DNA of 64,000 nucleotides. It comes from Escherichia coli (GTDB lineage: Bacteria; Pseudomonadota; Gammaproteobacteria; Enterobacterales; Enterobacteriaceae). The notes beneath the pieces were generated by a model. The model was not told the origin of the DNA. It did not search any database and saw only the letters and a program-made list of their open reading frames with translations. Below, piece after piece: positions 61,320-62,600 of this stretch; the stretch's first letter is position 1, and each line of letters starts with the position of its first letter. The DNA lies in NCBI RefSeq assembly GCF_024223415.1, contig NZ_CP100500.1. The stretch is one strand, 5' to 3'. The position numbers and the translations under genes were made by a program.

Positions 61320-61478
61320 GAAAAATCACAAATTTGTTTATAATCAAAAACATAATGCACAATCTGAAACATTATGAAACGGCAAAAAACACTAATTGAT
61401 AAAATATGTCCATACTTCACGCATTACGTTAAGCATCCGTTATAATCGGTTGCAGATACCAGCCTGTGGATGCTTAAC

Positions 61479-62600
61479 ATGGAATACCAACTCACTCTTA
61501 ACTGGCCCGATTTTCTTGAACGTCACTGGCAGAAACGCCCGGTGGTGTTAAAACGCGGCTTTAATAATTTTATTGACCCGATCTCTCCAGACGAGTTGGC
61601 GGGTCTGGCGATGGAAAGCGAAGTCGACAGTCGACTGGTCAGTCACCAGGATGGCAAATGGCAGGTCAGCCACGGTCCGTTCGAAAGCTACGATCATCTC
61701 GGTGAAACCAACTGGTCATTACTGGTACAGGCAGTGAACCACTGGCATGAGCCGACCGCCGCGCTGATGCGACCGTTCCGTGAACTACCGGACTGGCGTA
61801 TTGATGATCTGATGATCTCTTTTTCTGTACCTGGCGGCGGCGTCGGCCCGCATCTCGATCAGTACGACGTGTTTATCATTCAGGGTACCGGACGTCGTCG
61901 CTGGCGAGTGGGCGAAAAGCTGCAAATGAAACAGCACTGTCCGCACCCTGATCTGTTACAGGTCGATCCGTTCGAAGCCATCATCGATGAAGAGCTGGAG
62001 CCTGGCGATATTCTTTATATTCCGCCAGGATTCCCGCATGAAGGCTACGCGCTGGAAAATGCGATGAACTATTCCGTGGGTTTTCGCGCGCCAAATACGC
62101 GGGAATTAATTAGCGGATTTGCCGATTATGTGCTGCAACGTGAACTGGGCGGCAACTACTACAGCGATCCGGATGTTCCACCTCGCGCTCATCCTGCGGA
62201 CGTTCTGCCGCAAGAGATGGATAAACTGCGTGAGATGATGCTCGAATTGATCAACCAGCCGGAACACTTTAAGCAATGGTTTGGCGAGTTTATATCCCAG
62301 TCACGTCATGAACTGGATATCGCTCCGCCAGAGCCGCCTTATCAGCCGGATGAAATCTACGATGCGCTGAAACAAGGTGATGTGCTGGTGCGCCTGGGTG
62401 GTCTGCGCGTATTGCGCATTGGCGACGACGTGTATGCCAATGGTGAGAAGATCGATTCCCCGCACCGTCCGGCACTGGATGCACTCGCCAGCAACATTGC
62501 GCTGACTGCGGAGAATTTTGGCGATGCGCTGGAAGATCCGTCATTCCTCGCGATGCTCGCGGCGCTGGTCAATAGCGGGTATTGGTTCTTCGAAGGGTAA
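61479..62600 (+). CDS. roxA: Ribosomal protein uL16 arginine hydroxylase RoxA (YcfD), cupin/JmjC-like
   Basis: 373-aa product from MEYQLTLNWPDFLERHWQKRPVVLKRGF... matches K-12 YcfD; a second in-frame ATG lies 9 nt upstream (61470). Confidence 0.93.
   Translation: MEYQLTLNWPDFLERHWQKRPVVLKRGFNNFIDPISPDELAGLAMESEVDSRLVSHQDGKWQVSHGPFESYDHLGETNWSLLVQAVNHWHEPTAALMRPFRELPDWRIDDLMISFSVPGGGVGPHLDQYDVFIIQGTGRRRWRVGEKLQMKQHCPHPDLLQVDPFEAIIDEELEPGDILYIPPGFPHEGYALENAMNYSVGFRAPNTRELISGFADYVLQRELGGNYYSDPDVPPRAHPADVLPQEMDKLREMMLELINQPEHFKQWFGEFISQSRHELDIAPPEPPYQPDEIYDALKQGDVLVRLGGLRVLRIGDDVYANGEKIDSPHRPALDALASNIALTAENFGDALEDPSFLAMLAALVNSGYWFFEG

Follow-up and report, generated by a model that had tools for sequence, protein, structure and literature searches.

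In the Escherichia coli genome analyzed here, an 11-bp inverted repeat spans the promoter and ribosome-binding region of roxA, next to the junction of a genomic island, which raises the questions of what this repeat does and whether it has anything to do with the island. The window, i.e., the whole stretch of DNA that was analyzed, comprises 64,000 nucleotides of contig NZ_CP100500.1 (RefSeq assembly GCF_024223415.1), and all coordinates below refer to it. A previous sequence-only reading of this DNA had described the repeat and had proposed that it was either an operator or an mRNA stem sequestering the ribosome-binding site (RBS), and that integration of the island could alter roxA expression through it.

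The description itself proved accurate. The left arm GTTAAGCATCC (61428-61438, +) and the right arm GGATGCTTAAC (61468-61478, +) are complementary at 11 of 11 positions and enclose a 29-nt spacer with the hexamer TATAAT (61441-61446), and the last base of the right arm (61478) directly adjoins the annotated roxA ATG (61479). In RNA, the stem grows to 12 pairs through a G61439-U61467 wobble. For an 81-nt segment, the predicted folding energy was -20.9 kcal/mol (z = -2.5), and 2 of 200 shuffled sequences were equally stable. By itself, an 11-nt repeat of this kind is within chance expectation and statistically unremarkable: dinucleotide-shuffled windows contained 0.91 +/- 1.3 perfect 11-nt inverted repeats with spacers of 3-50 nt, 48% of them contained at least one, and the actual window contains 12 distinct ones. 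The 97-nt region around the repeat is single-copy (median 1, maximum 2 per genome in 5,425 genomes), which rules out a dispersed element such as a REP- or MITE-like palindrome. In addition, an Rfam scan of positions 61200-61700 at a permissive E-value returned only noise, with PK-repBA as the top overlapping match (13.7 bits versus a gathering score of 45, E = 2.4).

The function of the repeat depends on where roxA transcription and translation begin. The roxA (ycfD) coding sequence, which encodes the ribosomal protein L16 arginine hydroxylase, occupies 61479-62600 (+), according to both its open reading frame and the RefSeq annotation of the identical sequence. An alternative start at ATG 61470 (MLNMEYQ...) was rejected, as other genera lack that ATG and the RefSeq start is 61479. 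The hexamer TATAAT (+) is the -10 element of roxA, whereas the corresponding -35 position, read from the sequence as CACGCA (61418-61423, +; 17 bp upstream of the -10), matches TTGACA at 2 of 6 positions, and no -35 hexamer resembling TTGACA was found at a distance of 16-18 bp. Because of this poor -35, a scan with the consensus promoter called no promoter at roxA and missed the real one. CACGCA recurs at the same spacing to the -10 in Salmonella and part of the Enterobacter group, and the roxA promoter appears to be driven by its -10.

From the comparison of promoters across species, we first predicted transcription to start at the A of 61454 (+), which corresponds to NC_000913.3 1188265 on the minus strand, and two published datasets agreed exactly with this prediction. 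A ycfD start at NC_000913.2 1187488 (-), the same base, was reported with 108 reads and a 25-nt 5' UTR (Kim et al., 2012; PMC3415461, suppl. file 2); the upstream sequence given at this start is ...GTTAAGCATCCGTTATAATCGGTTGCA, and the published promoter sequence terminates in ...CCGTTATAATCGGTTGCA. Similarly, SMRT-Cappable-seq identified a b1128 unit with a start at 1188265 (-) (PMC6131387). Relative to this start, the left arm lies at -26 to -16, within the promoter spacer, the -10 at -13 to -8 (7 nt before the start site), the right arm at +15 to +25 and the ATG at +26, behind a 25-nt leader. The right arm consists of the Shine-Dalgarno (SD) GGA (61468-61470) and the spacer to the ATG. Thus, the repeat does cover both the -10 and the ribosome-binding region, as had been proposed, and the mapped start sits inside its loop. 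A weak RpoS SELEX peak listed as 'ycfD < phoQ < phoP' was uninformative for the repeat, as it lies within phoQ, about 310 bp before the stop codon and about 390 bp short of the roxA ATG.

The position of the start site has a direct consequence. Since transcription begins in the loop, the left arm is absent from the mRNA that roxA makes from its own promoter, and this mRNA cannot form the stem; for any one transcript, the promoter reading and the RBS-stem reading of the repeat are therefore mutually exclusive. The stem is possible only on RNA that enters from upstream and carries both arms. Such RNA exists in K-12, where SMRT-Cappable-seq revealed 'novel' b1130|b1129|b1128 units, i.e., phoP-phoQ-roxA, from three phoP starts (PMC6131387). 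Units of phoPQ only were also reported, so that some transcripts end after phoQ, in a table that gives no end coordinates (PMC6131387). We compared the two kinds of RNA by partition-function folding of the E. coli sequences, with the ribosome footprint taken as -15 to +13. On the own-promoter RNA, the model gave the SD an unpaired probability of 0.50 and an opening cost of 5.5 kcal/mol, whereas on read-through RNA, whether it came from phoQ, as in island-free strains, or from the island of this window, the SD was predicted to be unpaired with a probability of 0.00 and the opening cost rose to 10.8-12.8 kcal/mol. The earlier proposal of an mRNA stem hiding the RBS has thus survived in part: the right arm does lie over the SD and closure of the RBS is predicted on read-through RNA, but roxA's own transcript lacks the left arm.

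We propose that the repeat acts as a fold-back hairpin on read-through RNA, which would hide the roxA RBS and insulate RoxA synthesis from upstream transcription. This is the explanation we prefer, although we weigh its truth and its falsity about equally. According to the folding model, a stem of 11-12 bp (about -17 to -21 kcal/mol) would close over the RBS on RNA reading through from phoQ or from the island. The stem begins 24 nt beyond the phoQ stop codon, and a ribosome terminating at phoQ is, we infer, probably too far off to open it. On read-through RNA alone, the left arm would serve as an anti-Shine-Dalgarno segment and roxA would be poorly translated, while the RNA from its own promoter would be left open and hence translatable. 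RoxA output would then be set by roxA's own constitutive promoter, insulated from the Mg2+/PhoP-driven swings of phoPQ and from whatever is inserted upstream. If this is correct, the level of roxA RNA under PhoPQ-inducing conditions would overstate RoxA synthesis.

Arrangements of this kind are best known so far from insertion sequences, and the proposed hairpin, if it works as predicted, would provide a clean chromosomal case of translation that depends on transcript origin. In IS10/Tn10, 'fold-back inhibition' of externally initiated transcripts was reportedly described by Davis, Simons and Kleckner in 1985. In IS10, the 3' arm lies over the RBS and the 5' arm upstream of the element's own start, so that RNA from the resident promoter is translatable and RNA from outside folds back. 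The roxA junction has the same structural features: its 3' arm covers the SD, its 5' arm precedes the start of roxA's own transcript, and external transcripts exist. Unlike IS10, the gene concerned is not a transposase but a chromosomal housekeeping gene behind an inducible operon, its stem is short (11-12 bp) and varies in sequence and register between genera, and its function is predicted. Hairpins that occlude the SD between cistrons also serve translational coupling, in which the stem is opened by the ribosome that completes translation of the upstream gene. The roxA stem resembles these in lying between two co-directional genes and hiding the downstream RBS on a polycistronic RNA; it differs in being probably out of reach of that ribosome and in having a promoter in its loop that supplies an open transcript. 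In IS200, an inverted repeat that sequesters the SD, as the roxA repeat would, was shown by toeprinting and stem mutations to repress translation (PMC4513863). Both IS200 arms lie in its own 5' UTR, so that repression applies to every transcript, and transcription arriving from outside is stopped by a separate terminator; at roxA, by contrast, only the read-through transcripts hold both arms, and the E. coli spacer has no terminator.

To place the repeat in an evolutionary context, we compared the phoQ-roxA junctions of 80 other Enterobacteriaceae species with that of E. coli. The synteny of phoQ and roxA was universal in the species examined, with spacers of 55-197 nt. All 81 species carry TATAAT or TATACT 36-44 nt upstream of the roxA ATG. 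In most cases, (A/T)TCCGT stands before this -10, with CAG behind it at start-site distance and, further on, a ribosome-binding block containing GGA, which is almost universally retained 8-12 nt before the ATG (alignment columns 67-69). The strongest conservation in the junction falls on TCCGTTATAATC and this GGA themselves. Judged from its sequence, the TCCGTTATAATC block is a poor match to a PhoP box, a Fur box or an alternative-sigma site, all of which were rejected.

This pattern allows for an explanation without any structural function, in which the TCCG/CGGA core of the stem is a by-product of the conserved block before the -10 and of the SD, and the outer 6-7 pairs are a lineage coincidence retained through recent common descent. 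In that case, the locus would be merely a promoter and a ribosome-binding site that are partly complementary by chance. As TCCGTTATAATC and GGA are the most conserved elements, the complementarity of TCC and GGA could indeed follow trivially, and the roughly 0.9 repeats of this kind expected per shuffled window fit coincidence as well. We also rejected a single helix conserved throughout the family: when the E. coli helix was fixed on the alignment, 55% of cells were paired versus 52% in column shuffles, and the species' own arms formed duplexes of -8.5 kcal/mol versus -7.9 kcal/mol for arms swapped between species. The perfect helix was found only in E. coli and one close Escherichia, with one mismatch each in E. 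albertii and Salmonella. Furthermore, the uncompensated loss of pairs in two lineages is consistent with a lack of structural function: Escherichia sp. E1V33, of a cryptic lineage, has four uncompensated mismatches and loses the predicted occlusion, and the outer part of the helix breaks down in Citrobacter, where a single pair has undergone one compensated and two uncompensated changes. Outside Escherichia, Salmonella and Citrobacter, the E. coli arms are not conserved.

Three observations speak against coincidence. First, other genera carry inverted repeats of their own, with other sequences, on either side of this -10 and up to the ribosome-binding site, for example of 13 bp in Lelliottia and of 8 bp in Pseudocitrobacter, Superficieibacter and Enterobacter soli. 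These longer, differently placed repeats had escaped both the test with the fixed E. coli helix and the arm-swap test, which covered 16 nt upstream of the -10. Second, real sequences exceeded reversed and shuffled decoys in both duplex energy and predicted RBS occlusion. When 45 nt upstream of the -10 were paired with the leader, the upstream/leader duplex was significant at p<0.05 in 21% of species and at p<0.01 in 9%, versus 0-3% and 0% of reversed decoys, shared ancestry being uncorrected. The mean duplex energy was -16.2 kcal/mol versus about -12.8 kcal/mol in decoys. The significant duplexes use different sequences in Escherichia, Citrobacter, the Lelliottia/Enterobacter group, Superficieibacter and Pseudocitrobacter, and in the same 45-nt test Klebsiella, Raoultella and Atlantibacter gave no significant duplex. 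Over 79 distinct species, the mean predicted cost of opening the RBS was 4.6 kcal/mol on own RNA, 9.9 kcal/mol on phoQ read-through RNA and 6.7 kcal/mol with reversed or shuffled upstream decoys; in 82-86% of species, opening was costlier on read-through RNA than with the decoy (p about 1e-10 by Wilcoxon test, again uncorrected for shared ancestry). Kosakonia has a canonical terminator after phoQ and no predicted occlusion. Third, in the five variants of the 97-nt region that were sampled from E. coli, SNPs occurred at 61409 or 61414 only, so that the arms are invariant while adjacent upstream bases vary. Taken with statistics that ignore shared ancestry, the complementarity across species is suggestive of selected pairing but not decisive, and we consider the purely coincidental origin of the repeat rather unlikely, if still a serious competitor.

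The same comparison led us to a broader and more tentative idea, namely that the phoQ-roxA junction of Enterobacteriaceae may hold a 'promoter-embedded anti-Shine-Dalgarno' module, conserved in position and divergent in sequence, in which the DNA before the internal promoter would stay complementary to the short roxA leader and transcript origin would decide translation. We regard this generalization as possible but doubtful. If it holds, the synthesis of a ribosome-modifying oxygenase would be uncoupled from the stress-induced PhoPQ operon in the absence of a terminator, and internal promoters of other gene pairs prone to read-through could follow the same, so far overlooked, general design.

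A further possibility is that the hairpin serves the upstream operon, by marking or protecting the 3' end of phoPQ mRNA, whether through a terminator-like pause or by holding back 3' exonucleases. The hairpin is the sole stable structure in the 75-nt spacer after phoQ, and the coexistence of phoPQ-only and phoPQ-roxA units indicates that part of the transcripts end after phoQ. As in a Rho-independent terminator, the stem-loop is located just downstream of the last gene of an operon. Unlike such a terminator, it has a 29-nt loop and no U-tract, the bases after the stem being AUGGAAUACCAAC, and read-through RNAs are documented. The terminator scan was silent here, its only terminator-like match lying inside the integrase gene of the island, and neither a 3' end nor a Rho region is assigned to phoQ or roxA in the Term-seq and Rho tables of Adams et al. 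(2021), which are complete. A role at the phoPQ 3' end is therefore improbable in our view.

The operator that had been suggested as the other function of the repeat fared worse. A dimeric or looping regulator could bind both arms, which flank the -10 and the start site, where a bound protein would repress; alternatively, GTTAAG-N5-GTTATA could be a PhoP box, as its halves loosely resemble PhoP half-sites and phoPQ is adjacent. The arms, however, are 40 bp apart centre to centre, and their sequences diverge even where the promoter is retained; that complementary segments reappear with other sequences agrees with an RNA structure and not with a protein site. The candidate PhoP box agrees with just 7 of the 10 core positions, and the -10 itself makes up its second half; a full-text literature search for ycfD/roxA with phoQ/phoPQ returned no report linking ycfD/roxA to PhoP control. 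We consider a DNA operator very improbable, and return to the fold-back hairpin on read-through RNA as the preferred explanation in considering the island.

In this genome, phoP (43910-44581) and phoQ (44581-46041, +), the source of the read-through RNAs in island-free strains, where phoQ ends 75 nt before roxA, are separated from roxA by a 15.35-kb element with an imperfect 15-bp direct repeat at its ends. A three-way alignment of attL, attB and attR placed the attL core TGAATAAATATGTCC at 46035-46049 (+), overlapping the phoQ stop codon (46039-46041), and the attR core TGATAAAATATGTCC at 61397-61411 (+), i.e., -57 to -43 relative to the roxA start. In island-free strains, the position of the attR core is occupied by the phoQ stop codon (TGAATAAATATGTCC). 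The exact 10-mer AAATATGTCC of the core occurs only at 46040 and 61402 in the whole window. The repeat does lie outside the island, beyond the duplicated core, as had been stated; its distance from the junction had been given as 150-200 bp, whereas the left arm in fact begins 17 nt past the att core.

Comparison with other genomes revealed that the repeat is native E. coli backbone, unrelated to the island. In island-free E. coli, where 75 nt separate phoQ from roxA, it takes up the final 51 nt of this spacer, and island-free and island-bearing sequences are identical from 61402 onward. The query was matched by 5,425 of 5,426 complete E. coli genomes, only 599 of which span the island junction; about 4,800 of the 5,425 match from 61402 only, with phoQ directly upstream in all such matches listed. 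The suggested tie between repeat and island consequently fell away, the same repeat being present base for base in strains without the island, which is the sequence half of the outcome (same repeat, same roxA expression) that the sequence-only reading had itself set against its suggestion. That the repeat belongs to the integration apparatus, as part of an attB recognized by the integrase, or was created by integration is scarcely credible, for although it lies so close to the att core, it is outside the duplicated core with neither arm copied at attL, the motif that probably serves the integrase as arm-type site is another one, and the unchanged presence of the repeat in island-free genomes refutes the second version outright.

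The island replaces the DNA upstream of about -43 and leaves the core promoter and the entire repeat intact. As it parts roxA from phoPQ, read-through from phoPQ into roxA is removed. Island read-through is predicted to be as occluded as phoQ read-through, so the hairpin would buffer roxA against the insertion instead of transmitting an effect of the island. If so, this would explain how a 15-kb satellite can occupy the phoQ stop codon, at a distance of 17 nt, with no obvious cost to roxA: the core promoter is intact and foreign read-through would be silenced.

Finally, the heptamer array that had been taken as a landmark of the junction turned out to be a feature of the island itself. Two copies of ATTAACTACACC lie at 61253-61276, inside the island, and the same pair is mirrored at its opposite end (46123-46146). 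The last island gene, located at 60004-61230 and oriented away from roxA, encodes an integrase with an Arm-DNA-binding domain, and the ATTAACTACACC motifs are probably its arm-type sites.

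At the roxA promoter, the block (A/T)TCCGTTATAATC(C/G) (window positions 61435-61449 and the orthologous positions of L003-L082, the phoQ-roxA junction loci of other Enterobacteriaceae species) is conserved far above the needs of a -10 hexamer alone. CACGCA at the -35 position, though poor as a -35 element, is found again in several genera, and TCCG is also the conserved anti-Shine-Dalgarno partner of CGGA. An unknown factor or constraint beyond sigma-70 recognition may act at this site. In addition, a natural insertion was observed in E. coli LP5-1 (L084, 277-1500), in which an IS5-family, ISKpn26-like element lies at a TTAA inside the left arm of the 11-bp inverted repeat, at the equivalent of window 61429-61432. 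The left arm and the -35 region are thereby split from the roxA -10, and this strain provides a natural mutant usable for testing both the hairpin and the promoter.

Different arrangements were found in other genera. In Kosakonia sacchari (L081), phoQ is followed by a canonical intrinsic terminator (AAAAAGGGGGCG-AATT-CGCCTCCTTTTT, spacer positions 23-60), and folding prediction of the read-through RNA gave no occlusion of the ribosome-binding site. The co-occurrence of a terminator with the lack of predicted occlusion fits a model in which terminator and fold-back hairpin would be alternative solutions. In the Enterobacter/Lelliottia group (L026-L036, L051 and L075), the spacer has a run of A residues and then a short G+C hairpin (e.g., AAAAAAGCGAGATTCTCGC) some 55-75 nt before the roxA ATG; on the opposite strand, the two together look like an intrinsic terminator directed away from roxA.

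The island itself spans 15.35 kb (46050-61401), and its minus-strand genes include those for the terminase large subunit (47278-48936), portal (50637-51851), prohead protease (51856-52425), major capsid (52468-53667), an AAA_25 replication-type ATPase (56211-57614), an AlpA-like regulator (59438-59626) and a tyrosine integrase (60004-61230), a content resembling that of a capsid-forming phage satellite. The gene set described for cf-PICIs (PMC10085698) agrees with that of the island, a candidate member of this family. Integration has occurred exactly at the phoQ stop codon, which is regenerated; among 5,426 complete genomes of E. coli, approximately 599 carry the island junction. Moreover, the 150-bp integrase-proximal end (window ~61257-61405) recurs at 94% identity in E. 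coli PEC011 (NZ_CM127800.1, 82668-82816); because this match does not adjoin roxA, it suggests a related satellite with a different integration site.

Within the att core, a T>C change at 61409 (AAATATGTCC to AAATATGCCC) is a common E. coli polymorphism, found in four of the five sampled variant genomes and in the published K-12 promoter sequence, and it might influence the ability of the satellite to integrate. Near each island end, ATTAACTACACC occurs as a tandem pair (46123-46146 and 61253-61276) in the same orientation, giving four exact copies against 0.19 expected, and GAAACA-type repeats lie close to these pairs. These repeats are probably arm-type sites for integrase or excisionase, and they correspond to the "heptamer array" of the sequence-only reading.

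Between roxA and pepT, which are convergent, there is a perfect inverted repeat of 12 nt (CTTATCGTGCCT / AGGCACGATAAG, 62636-62678), probably a terminator that is shared by the two genes or bidirectional.
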